From contig LBFQ01000007.1 in the NCBI GenBank assembly GCA_000980735.1, positions 11,904-39,655 on the forward strand: a stretch of DNA of 27,752 bases, read 5' to 3'. Positions 2,978 to 9,083 of the stretch are shown piece by piece. The translations under genes and the position numbers were made by a program. Below the pieces are notes generated by a model. It ran no database searches. It was given only the letters and a program-made list of their open reading frames with translations, and was not told the DNA's origin. The stretch's first letter is position 1, and each line of letters opens with the position of its first letter. This DNA comes from Candidatus Caldipriscus sp. T1.2. GTDB lineage: Bacteria > Hydrothermota > Hydrothermia > LBFQ01.

Positions 2978-4405
2978 GTGGTGGAGGCGGAGGTGGGGGA
3001 AACCCTAAGCTTAAAACCTTACACCTCCCCCTACCTCTCCGCCTCCTCCCTTCCCTTATCCTTCGGATTTACTTACGGTTCCTATTCGGATCTTTCCGGA
3101 GTTTCAATAAAGGGTGGGCACCCAAAGGGAAACGCTGTTTATATTAACGGCGTTTTAATAAACCAACCCCAAAGTTCCTACGCGGACCTTACCGATATAT
3201 CCCAGTTTTTGTTTGGGACAATTCGGATTGTGGATGGGGGATTTTCCCCATATTCCTTTTACGGAAATCTGAACTTTAAGCCCTCGAGGAGTAAAGCATT
3301 TTACGGTTTTTTAAATAGCTTTCTCGGTTTTTCATTGGGGCTTAGGGATAGCATTGGGGGTTTTGATTGCGGAAATTTAATTGGTGGAAGGGACACACTA
3401 ACATTCTTAGAGGGGGTGGTGTTTGCCGGAGGTTTTTGGAACATTAGATTTTCAAGGAAGAGGACATCGGGAATGGAAGGATTTCCGCAAAGTTCTGGCA
3501 TCCAAACGGATATAAGGATTCTGGGAAAGTTTAAAGATTTTGAGCTCCTTATTCTGGGCAGGGAATGGGAGGATGTTTTTGTCAAGTCCCAACATACGAA
3601 CCTTAGGTTGGGTAGGGGATTTGAATTTTCAAAATTCAGGCTTTTAACTTACCTTGAGGGGATCAAAAGCTCAAACGTGGGGGAAAAATTTAGGCCTATC
3701 CTTTACATATCAAGGGATTTTAGGCTTTACTGGGGCATTATTTCATCCAACGTTTGGACGGATGGGAAAAGGATCGGGTACGGTTCGTTTTTGAACTTTC
3801 CTTTGAAGGTTGCAAACTTTAGCTTTTCCCTTTCCAACAGGATCCCTTCTTTTGACGAGTTATATTGGAAGGGGGCTCAGGCGGAAGGGAACCCAAACCT
3901 AAAAAACGAAAAGGCTATAACTCTAACTTCGGATTTAAACCTTAAGGGCTTTTACCTTTCAGCTTTCTTTAGGAGGGTTTGGGATCTTATAGAGTGGAGG
4001 AACTATGGGGGAATATGGAGACCTGAGAACGTCGGGGGTGGAAGGATGTGGGGGGCAAGCTTTGGGGCAAATTTTCTCGGTTTCAAAATTAAATACGACA
4101 GAATTTACGCTTACTATGACTCTGGAAAAAGGATGATATACAGGCCCAGGAATTCTTACTTTGCCTCCCTTTCAGCCCACAACCTTGAGCTTTCCTTTCT
4201 CTATTTGGATCCGAGGTTTTCAAACCCATCAAACACCCGCTTTTTGGATTTTTTCCTGAGGATTGACGGATATTTGAAATTTGAAATTTGGGGAAAGGGT
4301 TTCCTCTTTGGTGTGGAGAACATAACAAACAGGAAGAATTACTTTATTGAGGGCTACCCATCAAGGGGTAGGACTTTTGTCTTCTCCGTTTTCGGAAAAC
4401 TTTAA
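2978..4405 (+). CDS. TonB-dependent outer-membrane receptor, BtuB-like (short); true start may be ATT at 2948
   Basis: Plug motif VSIKGG...VYINGVLIN...DL...IRIVDGG.S..YG.LNF. Barrel motifs RIPSFDELYW, GNPNLKNE, GVENITN and YPSRGRTF. B12 riboswitch operon. Confidence 0.8.
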   Translation: MVEAEVGETLSLKPYTSPYLSASSLPLSFGFTYGSYSDLSGVSIKGGHPKGNAVYINGVLINQPQSSYADLTDISQFLFGTIRIVDGGFSPYSFYGNLNFKPSRSKAFYGFLNSFLGFSLGLRDSIGGFDCGNLIGGRDTLTFLEGVVFAGGFWNIRFSRKRTSGMEGFPQSSGIQTDIRILGKFKDFELLILGREWEDVFVKSQHTNLRLGRGFEFSKFRLLTYLEGIKSSNVGEKFRPILYISRDFRLYWGIISSNVWTDGKRIGYGSFLNFPLKVANFSFSLSNRIPSFDELYWKGAQAEGNPNLKNEKAITLTSDLNLKGFYLSAFFRRVWDLIEWRNYGGIWRPENVGGGRMWGASFGANFLGFKIKYDRIYAYYDSGKRMIYRPRNSYFASLSAHNLELSFLYLDPRFSNPSNTRFLDFFLRIDGYLKFEIWGKGFLFGVENITNRKNYFIEGYPSRGRTFVFSVFGKL

Positions 4406-5445
4406 AACTTCTCTATGATCTGGTATATCAAAAGGGATGTGCCTACATCAAAGGTTGCCTGAACTACTGGGGAGAACCTGTAGTAATCGGATCCTATTAT
4501 ATATCCGGGAGCGAGAGCCGCCCAATAAGCCAAGGTTGGCACCGCTGAATAAATTAAACCTTCAAGGAGAGAAAAGTCCTTTTTCTTTACGATTTTGTAA
4601 GATAAATACCCCCCAAGGGCCATACCCGCAAGGTTTGCAAATCCCCCAACCCTTTCAAAAACGGGATCTCGGTTGTAATACCCGAATAAAGAAGCCCCGA
4701 CAAAATCCTGGATAGAATCCTTGTGGGTTAAAGAATATAATAACCTAATCGGAGCCTCAAGGACAAAAGCACCCTTTGCTATGTTTGATGCTATAAACAA
4801 GGCATCCCCGTCCGTTATACTGTAATCGTTATGCGTTAGGGCAAATGCCCCAAGACCCCCGGCTATTGAAAGACCTGTTATTATCCCTAAATCCAACTTG
4901 CCCTCACCTTCACTTTTTGAGTCAAACACCCACCTTCCAAATATTAACCTCTTCAGTTGGTTATATGCATAAGGAAGTTGAACGGCGGAGACGGTTTTTA
5001 AGACGTAAGCGCCATCCGAACCACCCTGCAAACCCGAGAGATATCCCGCGGCATTCCCCCCCGAAAGTCCCAAGAGAAACAGGGTGGTATAAAGCTTGGG
5101 ATCCCAATTTTCAGTATAGACCGATATATTTGCTATTAGAAGTATAGACCATATCATACCATCTACCGCTCCCGTAAAGGATGAAACTGCCAATGGTTTT
5201 TTGATGTTTGTGGAGAGTGCAAAAGCTCCGTTTGCCATTAGGCAAGCCATAGGAGTCATACACGCGGCGCATGAGGCGTACCTCTCATCCTCTGAAGTAG
5301 AAAGAACCCAGAAGAATGCCGCAGTAGGGTAAGCGGTACTTCCGAGGAGGCACTGTCCCGCGAGGAACCTGAAAGTTTCCTCTCTACTTACCCCATCACT
5401 TTTCACCGTATCCGCATTTTGGGAAAGGAGGATCAGGCCAAGCAT
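4402..5445 (-). CDS. Uncharacterised multi-pass membrane protein (paralogue A)
   Basis: 347 aa with several Gly/Ala-rich hydrophobic helices. Clearly paralogous to 5453..6840. Confidence 0.75.
   Translation of the reverse strand: MLGLILLSQNADTVKSDGVSREETFRFLAGQCLLGSTAYPTAAFFWVLSTSEDERYASCAACMTPMACLMANGAFALSTNIKKPLAVSSFTGAVDGMIWSILLIANISVYTENWDPKLYTTLFLLGLSGGNAAGYLSGLQGGSDGAYVLKTVSAVQLPYAYNQLKRLIFGRWVFDSKSEGEGKLDLGIITGLSIAGGLGAFALTHNDYSITDGDALFIASNIAKGAFVLEAPIRLLYSLTHKDSIQDFVGASLFGYYNRDPVFERVGGFANLAGMALGGYLSYKIVKKKDFSLLEGLIYSAVPTLAYWAALAPGYIIGSDYYRFSPVVQATFDVGTSLLIYQIIEKF
4571..4680. repeat. 110-bp perfect direct repeat, copy 1
   Basis: Identical by eye to 5595..5704. The flanks diverge. Confidence 0.9.
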
Positions 5446-5451
5446 ATAGAA

Positions 5452-5457
5452 ATTATA
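5452..5457 (-). promoter_or_regulatory. -10 element (CCT-TATAAT) 6 nt upstream of the paralogue A ATG; overlaps the stop codon of paralogue B
   Basis: attata at 5452-57 followed by agg; ATG at 5445. Confidence 0.6.
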
Positions 5458-6840
5458 AGGTGGATTTATAAATAATGATTAAAATACCGATGTCAAGAAT
5501 ACTGGTCATAATGGGTGCAAAAGGGTTTTCCATAGGACCTAAAGCGGGGTAATACATAAGGGGTACAAACGCATAAATTATCCCTGTTGTTAGGGAAAAG
5601 TCCTTTTTCTTTACGATTTTGTAAGATAAATACCCCCCAAGGGCCATACCCGCAAGGTTTGCAAATCCCCCAACCCTTTCAAAAACGGGATCTCGGTTGT
5701 AATATCCGAAGAAGGTACCGCCAAAATCCCTACGGGTGCTAGCGTATAATACCTTAATTGGAGCCTCAAGAGCAAAGGCACCTCTTATCATGTTTGATGC
5801 CATAAATAGGGCATCCCCGGCTGTTATACTGTGATCGTTATATGTTAGGGTAAATGTCCCAAGACCTCCAACTATTGAAAGGCCTGTTATTATTCCTAAA
5901 TCCGCCTTAATCTCACCTTCGCTTTCTGAGTCAAACGCCCACCTTCCAAGTATTATCCTCTTCAGTTGGTTGTATGCGTAGGGAAGTTGAACGGCTGAGA
6001 CGGTTTTTAAAATATGCGCCCCCTCGGAACCCCCGAAACTTCCCGCCAAGGTCCCCGCTAAATTACCCGCGGATAATCCAAATATTGCAAACATATAAAA
6101 GATCCTTGGGTCCCATTCATTTACATAATGATAATAGTTTGCCGAAATTAAGGAACCCCATATCAGGCCATCAAGGGCACCTGCAAAGGAGGAGACCCCC
6201 ATAGGTTTCCTTATTGGATATTTTGTGATCCTTGTAAAGATATAACAGGCTATCGGTGAAAGGGCGGCGCACCACAATACCGCCTGCGGAACGGGTTCCT
6301 TTGAAGAATAAGAATATTGGGAATATCGGATACTTGATGTTTTATTTGGTAAAAAGTAGGGGGTGGGTGATGCACAGGTAGTTGTTGAACCGCCTGAGCT
6401 CGAACAACCACCGCTTGACCCCCCTGAGCTACCACCTCCCGAACAATCACCGCTTGAGCTACCACCTCCCGAACAACATCACCACCTCCCGAACAATCAC
6501 CACCTGAACAACCACCACCTGAACAATCACCACTACTTCCACCTGAGCAATCACCACCACCCGTTGCACAATCAAAGGTGGGACCCGTACAGCTTCCGAA
6601 ATCCCATGAAGGGGAACTACAACCCATTATGTTTCCAAAGTCGCAACTTGGAGGTACAAAGGTACCTATGTTGAAACAACATTGAGAACTTGAAGGTTGG
6701 GGTGGATTGATATAACCTTGCAAGAGGGTGAGGGCTGCGACTGTGGTTAAAGCCTGTGATGTTGCGAACCTCTTCTCCTCAAGCGTATCTCTTACAAGGA
6801 TCGTATCCGCATTTTGGGAAAGGAGAATAATGCTAATCAT
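5453..6840 (-). CDS. Uncharacterised multi-pass membrane protein (paralogue B) with Cys/Gly/Ser-rich insert; frameshift at about 6476-6478
   Basis: Starts MISIILLSQNADT (paralogue A starts MLGLILLSQNADT). The frame of 5453..6277 stays open upstream to 6478 and reads CSGGGSSSGDCSGGG..., continuing the GDCSGG repeats of ORF 6250..6939. The joined protein is about 460 aa. Confidence 0.75.
5595..5704. repeat. 110-bp perfect direct repeat, copy 2
   Basis: Identical to 4571..4680. Confidence 0.9.
6389..6561 (-). repeat. Imperfect tandem repeat encoding (G)n-D-C-S units
   Basis: accacctcccgaacaa at 6431, 6461 and 6481, plus related acctgaacaa units. Confidence 0.85.
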
Positions 6841-6846
6841 AAAAGA

Positions 6847-6852
6847 ATTATA
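6847..6852 (-). promoter_or_regulatory. -10 element (TATAAT) 6 nt upstream of the paralogue B ATG
   Basis: attata at 6847-52; ATG at 6840. Confidence 0.6.
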
Positions 6853-6914
6853 ATGGGGATTAAAATAACGCGAGGTTAAGAAGGTTAAAATAAAAGTGGG
6901 GGTTGTTGCATCCA

Positions 6915-6920
6915 TATAAT
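6915..6920 (+). promoter_or_regulatory. -10 element (CCA-TATAAT) 8 nt upstream of rpmH
   Basis: TATAAT at 6915-20; ATG at 6929; no SD in between. Confidence 0.65.
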
Positions 6921-6928
6921 TTCCGCCT

Positions 6929-7066
6929 ATGTCCATCACCTATAATAAACCCTCTTGGAGGAAGAGAAAGCGCAGGCATGGGTTTTTGGCGAGGATGAGG
7001 ACTCCGGGTGGAAGGAGGGTTTTAAAGAGGAGGCGCAAGAAAGGAAGGAAAAGGCTGACGGTTTAG
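6929..7066 (+). CDS. rpmH: 50S ribosomal protein L34
   Basis: Translated by hand: [45 protein letters not shown]. Contains the L34 signature HGF..RM.T..GR.VL.RRR.KGRK.L. Below the ORF-track size cut-off. Confidence 0.97.
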
Positions 7067-7067
7067 T

Positions 7068-9083
7068 ATGGAGGTTAAGGAGGGTTTGGATTTAGAAAAG
7101 GTAAGGAATATTGGTTTTATTGCGCATATAGACGCGGGTAAAACCACAACAACGGAAAGGGTTTTGTATTATACCGGAAGGATCCACAGGCTCGGAAACG
7201 TGGATGAGGGGACCGCGACAACGGACTGGATGATACAGGAAAAGGAAAGGGGAATAACCATAACATCCGCGGCTACCGTATGCTTCTGGAAGGGATACCA
7301 GATAAACATAATAGATACTCCTGGGCATGTGGATTTTACGATAGAGGTTGAAAGGTCCCTGAAAGTTTTGGATGGTTTGGTGGTGATCTTTAGCGCGGTG
7401 GAGGGGGTTGAACCTCAAAGCGAAACCGTATGGCGTCAGGCGGAGAGGTATAAGGTTCCGAGGTTGATATTCATCAACAAGATGGATAGGATAGGGGCGG
7501 ACTTTAGGAGGGTAATCGAAGGTTTAAAAAAGAAGTTGAACGTTGATCCCCTTCTTATGGAGCTTCCCATAGGGATTGAGAAGGATTTTGTTGGGGTAAT
7601 ACACCTTGTGGAGAGGAAAAAGTATATCTGGGATATTGACGAGACCGGGGAGAAATATAGGGTTGAGGATTGGGAATTTGACGAGGAGAGTATCCCATAT
7701 TACGAAGATATAATACTTAGGTCCTCGGAGTACGATCCCGAAATTTTAGAGATTTACGAAAAAGAAGGTTTTGTACCGCCAGAAAGGGTTAAAAAGGCGC
7801 TGAGGAAGGGCGTAATAGAAAACAGGATCTTTCCCGTATTTATGGGTTCCGCCCTGAAAAACAAAGGAATACAGCCTTTGATAGATGCTATAGTAGAGCT
7901 TTTACCTTCACCCCTTGATGTTCCCCCCGTTCATGGAAAACTAAGGGGTGAGGACGTTTATATTCATACGGGCAAGGGGAATTTGGTGGCGCAGGTTTTC
8001 AAAATTCAGGTGGATCCTAAGGGAAAAAATAAGTATTTCTACACAAGGGTTTATAGGGGTGAGATAACCTTTATGACGAAGATATACAACCCGAGGACTG
8101 GGGAGACAATGAGGGCGACGAGGATATACAAAATGCATGCAAACAAAAAGGAGCAGATACAGAAGGCGGAAGCGGGGGATATAGTGGCTTTGGTAGGACT
8201 TTCGGACAAAACCATAACGGGCGATACCTTAACCGTAATTGAAGAGCCCGTAGAGCTTGACAGGATACCTTTCCCAGAACCCCTTGTTTCCGTTGCCTTG
8301 GAACCCAAGAAGAGTTCGGATGAAGCCCAACTGGAGGAGATTTTAAATATTTTTGCGGTGGAGGACCCATCCCTAAGGGTCAAGAAGGACGAGTCTACTG
8401 GGCAGTTTATACTTACGGGCATGGGAAAGCTTCACCTCGATATTGTGATTGATAGGATAATTAGGGATTACGGTTTAGAGGTAAGGGTAGGAAAGCCTTA
8501 TGTATCTTATAGGGAGACGATAACGGGGAGGGGATACGCAAGGGCGGAGTTCAAGAAAGAAGCGATGGATGTTGTTCATAGGGGTATAGTGGAGGTTGAA
8601 GTTGAAAGTACGGATGAAACTTCCTTTGAGATAGAATCCGAACTACCTCAAGAAATAAGGGAAGCTTTGATTTCTTCGTTTAGGGAAGTTTTGGAGTTTG
8701 GACCCCTTATGGGTTATCCTATGGTTAAAATTAAGGCAAAATTTAAGGTACCCTACGATCCTACCTTTACCCCCCTTGGTGTTAGGGCTGCATCCATAAA
8801 GGCCCTTCAGGAAGCGATACAAAACGCAAAACCCATCCTCCTTGAACCTTACGCCCTGATCTCCGTTATGACACCTCAGGAGTACCTTGGAAATATCGTG
8901 GAGCTTTTATCCTCCATTGATGGGGAAATAAAGAACATATATGAAGAGTTTGGAACGCAGTTTGTCGATGCCTTGGTGCCACTAAAGCAAACTTTTGACC
9001 TTGCAAACGACCTCAGGTCCGCGTCCCAGGGAAGGGCAACTTATACCATAAAGGAAGTTGAATTCCTACCATCAAAAGGCTAA
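7068..9083 (+). CDS. fusA: Elongation factor G paralogue (EF-G2 type, divergent domain IV)
   Basis: [35 protein letters not shown] and NKMD present. Domain IV lacks the QSGGRGQYG and HDVDSS loops. Not in the rpsL-rpsG-fusA-tuf context. Confidence 0.93.

Follow-up and report, generated by a model that had tools for sequence, protein, structure and literature searches.

The window analysed here is a stretch of 27,752 nt of contig LBFQ01000007.1 (positions 11,904 to 39,655) from Candidatus Caldipriscus sp. T1.2. Its minus strand carries two adjacent paralogous genes, termed here gene B and gene A, for predicted polytopic membrane proteins, and gene B differs from its neighbour by a Cys/Gly/Ser-rich insert that contains a tandem repeat array. 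The conclusion that gene B is one gene with a real, selected insert, and that it belongs to an orphan family, is solid. The features of the pair are the following.

4402-5445, minus strand: gene A, the insert-less tandem paralogue; 347 aa, intact, modelled as an all-helical bundle of about 10 long helices
5453-6840, minus strand: gene B, the insert-bearing paralogue; a single gene with one frame error, joined product of 461 aa, with intact syntenic orthologues P0033 and P0031
6478-6840, minus strand: 5′ frame of gene B, 121 aa; short hydrophobic N-terminus MISIILLSQNADT, helix 1, Pro-rich linker, the non-repetitive Cys cluster QCCFN...PTFDC and the first repeat units
6476-6480, minus strand: frameshift site; GAT GT TGT against the repeat consensus GAT TGT, the window being +2 nt (or -1 nt) out of register
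5453-6475, minus strand: 3′ frame of gene B; the rest of the repeat units, a Ser/Thr/Pro/Tyr linker, helices 2-10 and the stop codon
6359-6684, minus strand: the whole insert, QCCFN...CASPTP; 108 aa with 14 Cys, predicted to be disordered
6389-6570, minus strand: the tandem (G/S)n-[D/G]-C-S repeat array; unit variants of GGT GAT TGT TCN GGN GGT GGT (AGC TCA)

Gene B is one gene with one frame error

Two overlapping open reading frames (ORFs) in different frames span 5453-6939 on the minus strand, upstream of gene A, and the stretch 5453-6840 is one gene. In a three-frame translation, the frame that opens at the ATG at 6840 (start MISIILLSQNADT) ends ...CSGGDCSGGGD at 6478; a frame offset by one base resumes as (C)CSGGGSSSGDCSGGGSSGGSSGGCSSSGGSTTTCASPTP, runs past the join as CSGGGSSSGDCSGGG...STTTCASPTP and reads through the whole helical core to the stop codon at 5453-5455. 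One join at 6476-6480 gives a product of 461 aa, and the other 341 codons of gene B are open. The DNA at the join reads GAT-GT-TGT-TCG and that of the preceding unit GAT-TGT-TCG (GATTGTTCG). Either 2 nt were inserted here or 1 nt was lost from GATTGTTGT (GAT-TGT-TGT), with GATTGTTCG or GATTGTTGTTCG as the in-frame forms of the site and GATGTTGTTCG as the frame-shifted form. A first-pass annotation of this DNA, made from the sequence alone, had already joined the two frames. This is borne out by the single join and by orthologues from independent assemblies that hold the region in one frame; the existence of such intact copies speaks against two separate genes, the outcome that the annotation had named as fatal to its proposal.

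Two further readings of the DNA were rejected. Programmed frameshifting was ruled out by direct reading of the sequence, which has no slippery heptamer at GGTGATGTTGTTCGG, and a Pro/His-rich antisense ORF of 103 aa on the plus strand (6363-6674; PPELEQPP...HHLNNHH), open across the array, is a by-product of the repeat and not a gene.

The insert and its orthologues

The insert occupies the helix 1-helix 2 loop of gene B, where gene A has about 20 residues. Its 108 aa comprise 14 Cys, 32 Gly, 25 Ser and 8 Asp; the Cys make up 13% of the residues and are spaced 5-13 residues apart, with a single CC. The expanded loop consists of a conserved non-repetitive Cys cluster (QCCxNIG...C...PTFDC), the (G/S)n-[D/G]-C-S array and a Ser/Thr/Pro/Tyr linker. 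Tandem Repeats Finder detects 15- and 50-nt periods at 6423-6533, and in the AlphaFold2 model of the orthologue P0033 the insert is disordered (pLDDT 25-30 over residues 45-164). These counts agree with the first description, which had about 14 Cys in a segment of about 110 aa built of GGGDCS repeats, placed as a module between the first two helices and missing from the paralogue. In one detail that description has to be corrected: the CAAC...C of the paralogue, taken for a loop motif, is actually the start of helix 2, and gene B keeps its counterpart, LWCAALSPIAC. No second Cys/Gly/Ser array occurs in any frame of the assembly (1.25 Mb in 72 contigs, 57% complete), and a search with the insert only returned matches within the same family alone, so that the module is not shared with other proteins. 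The array is not a product of chance: its DNA is periodic, it is unique in the assembly, and it lies in frame, with other numbers of units, in the orthologues.

The first homology search returned 44 proteins, all of them unnamed or 'hypothetical' and one labelled Candidatus Caldipriscus sp. Among them are seven proteins of 429-487 aa, assembled independently from metagenomes, in which the Cys/Gly/Ser segment reads in one frame. Six of the seven are close orthologues of gene B and the seventh, P0043, belongs to a more distant lineage. The variation in repeat number that had been anticipated is indeed found among the close orthologues, whose segments measure 63-131 aa with 8-17 Cys; the counts among close alleles are 8, 11, 12, 14 and 17, both odd and even. 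On a 283-kb contig (L003) that is syntenic with the window on both sides, an intact 445-aa gene (P0033) is followed by a 347-aa gene. Gene B is 95% identical to the L003 copy in nucleotides, with length differences of +53, +9 and -12 nt; the net +50 nt equals 48+2, and the window is therefore two bases out of register. Another intact syntenic orthologue, P0031, lies at L018/L019, and L017 also holds a single-frame copy. In other sequencing runs, three alleles (Logan contigs) bridge the shift site with -89, -113 and -56 nt relative to the window; all these differences are 2 mod 3, and all three alleles are therefore in frame.

Selection on the insert was estimated by the Nei-Gojobori method for the window against L003, L017 and L018, from small counts. 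The dN/dS values were 0.16-0.54 for the non-repetitive Cys cluster, 0.05-0.35 for the repeat array, 0.10-0.66 for the Ser/Thr/Pro/Tyr linker and 0.15-0.49 for the helical core. The repeat units vary mainly at synonymous Gly/Ser codons, and GAT TGT TCA (Asp-Cys-Ser) is kept in two lineages, the second of which (L004) has a core only about 52% identical. In a third lineage (P0050, L020), (SSGSSGDC)n occupies this position, again at the same chromosomal locus. In this way (G/S)n-[D/G]-C-S units are kept in three lineages whose cores are 47-60% identical and whose array spacers differ (GGGSSGDCS, SSGSSGGDCS and SSGSSGDCS). Judged by these comparisons, the array is translated, is under purifying selection and gains or loses units between populations, and the [D/G]-C-S periodicity is preserved in the protein sequence. 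The insert-bearing and insert-less genes are present as a pair in three lineages; the order of insert-bearing then insert-less gene is therefore the ancestral arrangement in the genus.

A passive spacer, that is, a low-complexity Gly/Ser linker of which only the length matters and whose Cys are carried along by duplication of the unit, would share several properties with this insert, which is disordered in the model, polymorphic in length and built by duplication of one DNA unit. However, C-S is kept in every unit of every allele, mostly with D before it, and in three lineages despite their different spacers; dN/dS is well below 1, and ordinary Gly/Ser linkers avoid Cys. We regard a passive spacer as very improbable. 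An untranslated repeat or plain linker, the other outcome that the first-pass annotation had held to be decisive against it, is contradicted by the single-frame orthologues and by dN/dS < 1.

Origin of the frameshift

Is the frameshift a property of the organism or of the assembly? The shift appears to be specific to this assembly. With the other 341 codons intact, an old pseudogene is less likely than an error of assembly or sequencing or a null allele of very recent origin. In Logan contigs of four other runs, depth is near zero over the window's exact arrangement at 6440-6496, although none of the four runs is clearly the source sample and their contigs are too fragmented to bridge the window's exact array. 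A 22-mer spanning the shift has no match in metagenome contigs, and its in-frame twin without the extra bases was not found there either.

If the frameshift were genuine, gene B would be a fresh null allele, or would be switched on and off by repeat slippage, and the insert-bearing copy would be dispensable and its gene decaying. In favour of this, the extra GT lies outside the homopolymers in which sequencing errors cluster, the array varies strongly from population to population, and the locus is plastic, the pair having collapsed to one B/A hybrid gene in some strains (L017, P0028). On the other side stand a single lesion in 1388 nt with all remaining codons open, its position in a stretch unique to this assembly with almost no depth in the four other runs, the absence of the spanning 22-mer from other metagenome contigs, and the lack of a slippery site or a simple-sequence tract of the kind used in phase variation. 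In addition, a Sanger/Celera draft (L016) has three or more obvious errors in the same array, which marks it as error-prone to assemble. A genuine frameshift is, in our estimate, rather unlikely. The question is independent of the functional readings of the insert that are weighed below.

The array breaks assemblies and gene calls routinely and is mis-called in at least three independent data sets. In the Celera scaffold of Yellowstone (YNP) site 11, at least three frame errors fall in the array (L016:1950-2300), for example TGCTTAACCAGGCGG against the consensus TGCTCAGGAGGCGG, and the truncated protein of this scaffold, P0038 (253 aa), represents 22 database members. At L017:2446-3789 and in P0028 the tandem pair is replaced by one in-frame hybrid gene, with the N-terminus, insert and core of gene B and the C-terminus of gene A (...LIYQLIEKF), which results either from unequal crossing-over between the paralogues or from assembly collapse. 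The JGI gene call splits the L017 hybrid into a spurious 88-aa ORF and a 262-aa ORF.

An orphan family of predicted membrane proteins

Gene B and gene A are 64% identical over the C-terminal 257 aa. AlphaFold2, run with a 22-sequence alignment, models gene A as an all-helical bundle of about 10 helices of 17-34 residues (mean pLDDT 84.4, pTM 0.81), and the core of the P0033 model is the same. By the number and length of these helices, and by positive GRAVY values (0.26-0.59 across 16 members; 0.37 for gene A), the proteins are predicted to be polytopic alpha-helical membrane proteins. Nine polar helix residues are invariant (D95, W99, S143, Y161, R166, R265, D333, S337 and Y341), as is the motif T211-x-G-D-A-L-F-x-x-S-N-x-x-K-G; so many invariant polar residues within helices suggest that the core is a transporter or a membrane enzyme rather than a scaffold. 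Cys residues concentrate in helices 1 and 2, where only C59 is nearly invariant and the adjacent Cys vary as CAAC, CC, CxC or QC..GC. An internal repeat of N-half and C-half (5+5) was not detected by hhalign (probability 0.2).

The first-pass annotation recognised no family, and the wider searches come to the same result. Neither gene A nor either part of gene B belongs to a Pfam or NCBIfam family at E<=1, and 27 family members searched against Pfam at E<=10 gave chance matches only (Rotavirus_VP1 0.088, Transmemb_17 0.043). The best E value in a sequence profile search of PDB was 0.92. Fold searches overall gave only generic helical-hairpin or transporter-like partial matches: Foldseek against PDB (best E 0.52, TM <=0.3), a wide VIA-align comparison with 48,161 chains (best Z 6.9, partial, over 116 of 347 residues) and the Atlas fold search (TM-scores <=0.48). 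A feature-based search of the ESM Atlas reached 0.87 at best, to unnamed clusters and below the lead threshold. An exhaustive phmmer search of 1.84 billion representatives yielded about 12 true clusters; two long matches, P0051 and P0054, were rejected as unrelated repeat proteins, and a profile search with the insert-less alignment added no new relatives. Among 201 genomes of the phylum, the family is present in 10 of the 11 genomes of one taxonomic family (two genera), with one marginal partial match outside it (E 1.8e-4). By these searches it is an orphan, lineage-restricted protein family of Candidatus Caldipriscus and one sister genus only.

Membrane topology of the loop

After a start of M-[LI]-x-[LI]-I-L-L-x-Q-N-A-D-T, the proteins continue into a charged tail, which in one lineage measures 35-50 residues. 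The N-terminal hydrophobic run has 6-7 residues, and the plausible signal-peptidase site (LSQNA|D) has no small residue at -3. A cleaved N-terminal signal peptide was judged unlikely for want of a -3/-1 small-residue site. A charged tail would be hard to export without such a site, which argues for a cytoplasmic N-terminus and a periplasmic helix 1-helix 2 loop; the Pro- and Ser/Thr-rich linkers that flank the insert fit this placement. A periplasmic loop is, on these features, fairly probable, and an extracytoplasmic location of the insert is plausible. In P0043, the N-terminal tail carries the motif LQE-x-DT-[IV]-K three times.

With the opposite orientation the insert could be a cytoplasmic, metallothionein-like buffer: the N-terminus would act as an export signal, helix 1 would run from outside to inside, and the thiols would chelate Zn, Cu, Cd or As. 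Lys and Arg are about equally frequent on the two faces (about 10 and 12), a balance that by the positive-inside rule favours neither orientation and would allow a cytoplasmic loop, and an outer-membrane-like gene of 216 aa in L004 starts with a similar ultra-short hydrophobic run, MLIGFLFLQGA. Against this arrangement count the missing small residue at -3 of LSQNA|D and the shortness of the hydrophobic run, a Cys density (13%) and spacing unlike those of metallothioneins, the absence of Pfam matches, and the Ser/Thr/Pro-rich linkers, which would be unusual in cytoplasmic loops. A cytoplasmic buffer therefore seems to us quite improbable.

Redox state of the thiols

Caldipriscus belongs to the Pyropristinus / WOR-3 lineage, which is deep-branching and little cultured, and is one of three keystone populations in streamer communities at 80-84 °C in Yellowstone springs that are sulfidic and contain arsenic; the filamentous communities of Conch Spring, which is sulfidic, and Octopus Spring, which is micro-oxic, grow at 82-84 °C, and sulfur, arsenic and oxygen drive respiration there (PMC11696919). 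The hosts of the gene family are hyperthermophiles of alkaline hot-spring streamers. A reducing CcdA/DsbD_TM pathway is present in all four near-complete relatives, whereas neither DsbB nor VKOR was found in any of the five lineage genomes searched. Co-occurrence with DsbA, which the first-pass annotation had proposed to check, does exist, with a DsbA-family ORF in each of these five. Free thiols are more likely than fixed disulfides because DsbB and VKOR were not found, CcdA is present, the water is sulfidic or micro-oxic, and Cys counts are both odd and even; the loop thiols are, by this genomic evidence, probably free.

The main rival to the reading preferred below is a disulfide cross-linker, in which disulfides of the periodic Cys, within or between molecules, would make the loop rigid or fasten the protein to partners in the envelope at temperatures of 80 °C and above, much as in the Cys-rich envelope proteins of chlamydiae or the Cys-Gly repeats of insect chorion. 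The DsbA-family ORFs favour it, as do the conserved cluster QCCxNIG...C...PTFDC, which resembles a small disulfide knot, and the Ser/Thr/Pro-rich flanks, which would be typical of extracytoplasmic regions. However, no DsbB or VKOR was found that would re-oxidise DsbA, the springs are sulfidic or micro-oxic (PMC11696919), the model predicts a disordered array, and close alleles have odd or even numbers of Cys (8, 11, 12, 14, 17), which a defined disulfide pattern would not tolerate. We consider a cross-linker unlikely.

Comparison with known thiol-rich proteins

SoxY has an Ig-like fold and the partner SoxZ. The Cys of its C-terminal GGCGG has an established function in binding the sulfur substrate, and sulfur-loaded SoxY is the substrate of periplasmic Sox enzymes (PMC6067878). 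As in SoxY, the Cys of gene B lie within a flexible Gly-rich peptide (units GGGCSGG or GGDCSGG). In contrast, SoxY is a small soluble periplasmic protein with one C-terminal Cys, encoded in a sox cluster, whereas gene B and its orthologues encode polytopic membrane proteins whose 8-17 Cys lie within a loop; the motif, G-[D/G]-C-S-G, is internal, and neither the protein nor the five lineage genomes give a PF13501 match.

Metallothioneins are small stand-alone proteins with about 20-30% Cys in CxC, CxxC or CC clusters. The insert resembles them, including bacterial SmtA, in being rich in Cys, Gly and Ser, in an aromatic-poor array and in that soft-metal chelation is conceivable. It departs from them with about 13% Cys, a spacing of 5-13 residues, a single CC, a place inside a 461-aa membrane protein and no Pfam match, and the label 'metallothionein-like' of the first-pass annotation does not hold in density or spacing.

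The first transmembrane domain of MerE has a Cys pair that takes part in the transport of mercurials (PMC5715351). A similar pair, vicinal or nearly so and next to further thiols, lies in the gene B family where helix 1 ends or helix 2 begins (QCC..., CAAC, CC, CxC); MerT, MerC, MerE and MerF have theirs in the first transmembrane helix. The Mer transporters have 2-4 helices and are encoded in mer operons, whereas the gene B family, with about 10 helices, gives no Pfam match and is not accompanied by mer genes. An assignment to MerT, MerC or DsbD-CcdA finds no Pfam match, and apart from the nearly invariant C59 the Cys vary; a separate bona fide CcdA/DsbD_TM gene lies elsewhere in the relatives.

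Chlamydial OmcA/OmcB, the Cys-Gly repeats of insect chorion and keratin-associated proteins are disulfide-cross-linked, secreted or structural proteins of oxidising settings. Gene B shares with them periodic Cys in a Gly/Ser-rich low-complexity context, but its repeat forms a loop in a helical protein of inner-membrane type, and its host is a hyperthermophile of sulfidic or micro-oxic water in which DsbB and VKOR were not detected.

A substrate for post-translational modification (radical-SAM thioether, RiPP-like cross-link or lipidation) would draw on the periodic Cys adjoining Asp and Ser, the only feature in its favour. As a loop within a membrane protein of 460 aa, the insert does not have the form of a leader-core peptide, and the loop position in proteins of 429-487 aa does not match RiPP/radical-SAM peptides such as SCIFF or ranthipeptides. 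It has no lipobox context, and genes for a radical SAM enzyme, a cyclase or a transferase are absent from its immediate surroundings in the window and at five related loci (L003, L004, L017, L018 and L020), so that the co-occurring radical SAM gene suggested in the first-pass annotation is missing there. We find a modification substrate hardly credible. Taken together, the insert falls outside metallothioneins, SoxY, Mer/DsbD-type proteins and RiPPs; it may nevertheless work like the first three, and by class it belongs to the broad kind of flexible thiol-rich binding or carrier segments.

A putative multi-thiol arm

The best explanation overall, to which we assign a probability of about 0.5, is that a real, selected insert in an orphan membrane pair acts as a multi-thiol arm, probably on the periplasmic side. 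Its disordered chain, 60-130 residues long, would present 8-17 thiols, each flanked by Gly/Ser and usually preceded by Asp, and the loop would form a flexible periplasmic arm comparable to the GGCGG carrier arm of SoxY repeated many times. The arm might capture a thiophilic ligand, either sulfane sulfur or polysulfide, or As(III), Sb(III), Hg or Cu, ligands that are plausible in these sulfidic, arsenic-bearing springs. It could then retain the ligand or deliver it to conserved Cys of the membrane core, located where helices 1 and 2 end, and the gene B product might do so as a heteromer with its insert-less paralogue, gene A. The specific chemistry, capture of sulfane sulfur or of soft metals and metalloids, is a guess by analogy and more likely wrong than right. 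In its fullest form the proposal would have a hypervariable periplasmic line of 8-17 SoxY-like thiols capture sulfane sulfur, thio-arsenic or soft metalloids and feed a new 10-helix fold that forms a heteromer with the paralogue; we offer this as a long shot.

Several observations weigh against a multi-thiol arm. The near-equal charge of the two faces would permit a cytoplasmic loop, the DsbA-family ORFs make disulfides possible, and the Cys, 5-13 residues apart, are set more loosely than those of proven metal-binding peptides. SoxY (PF13501) and the rest of the Sox system were not found in the five lineage genomes, which leaves a sulfur carrier with no known partner, and the neighbouring genes offer no tie to sulfur or metal handling. 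To these may be added the extra GT outside a homopolymer at the frameshift site, which would fit a real frameshift.

What makes the locus of interest is a conserved, lineage-specific membrane pair without a recognisable fold, one member of which has a selected, length-polymorphic array of Gly-flanked thiols. If the thiol arm is real, it would be a new way to handle sulfur or toxic metalloids at the cell envelope; if it is not, the locus is still a clean case in which a translated tandem repeat defeats assembly and gene calling.

Neighbouring genes, transcripts and promoters

The pair is bordered on one side by rpmH, an elongation factor G (EF-G) paralogue and a cytochrome c gene, and on the other by a convergent TonB-type receptor operon. 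These neighbours are housekeeping genes and differ between lineages; the gene context therefore gives no functional clue. A 45-aa ORF at 6929-7066 on the plus strand, which diverges from gene B and is followed by the EF-G paralogue, corresponds to ribosomal protein L34 (rpmH), and its equivalent in L017 and L020 matches PF00468. A 475-aa ORF at 2978-4405 on the plus strand is convergent with gene A, the 3′ ends overlapping by 4 nt, and the same neighbour is found in L003, L005, L017 and L018; it has no Pfam match at E<=0.001 and looks like a reduced TonB-dependent receptor. In L004, a 216-aa Gly-rich protein ending in GGGFLF (L004:7312-7962), probably a beta-barrel, is encoded between the insert-bearing and the insert-less paralogue.

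In the metatranscriptome run X8, contigs cover gene B from about 5394 to about 6560, leaving out the first 280 nt or so and the region upstream (6611-7000 for the two together), both of which are covered in DNA runs. The gap could be due to contig fragmentation, a divergent allele or an internal 5′ end.

The 5′ ends of the two paralogues are nearly identical in DNA over at least the first 13 codons, M-x-x-L-I-L-L-S-Q-N-A-D-T (5408-5430 and 6806-6826), as are the first 27 codons of the paralogues in L004 (L004:5935-6020 and 8001-8085), which points to gene conversion or to a constrained 5′ element. Each gene of the window is preceded by a TATAAT box.

6847-6852, minus strand: TATAAT box of gene B, 6 nt before the ATG; candidate -10 element for leaderless transcription
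5452-5457, minus strand: TATAAT box of gene A, 6 nt upstream of the ATG; overlaps the stop codon of gene B

In 15 of 16 genes of the family, from 12 loci that include the window, L003-L009, L012, L017 and L018, a hexamer of the TATAAT type (TATAAT, TACAAT, TAGAAT or TAAAAT) stops exactly 6 nt short of the ATG, and none of these genes has a Shine-Dalgarno sequence, a pattern that suggests leaderless mRNAs for the family. Since the box of gene A overlaps the stop codon of gene B, each paralogue would have its own, putative promoter, and the constant spacing of 6 nt between box and ATG makes the start codon of gene B well supported.

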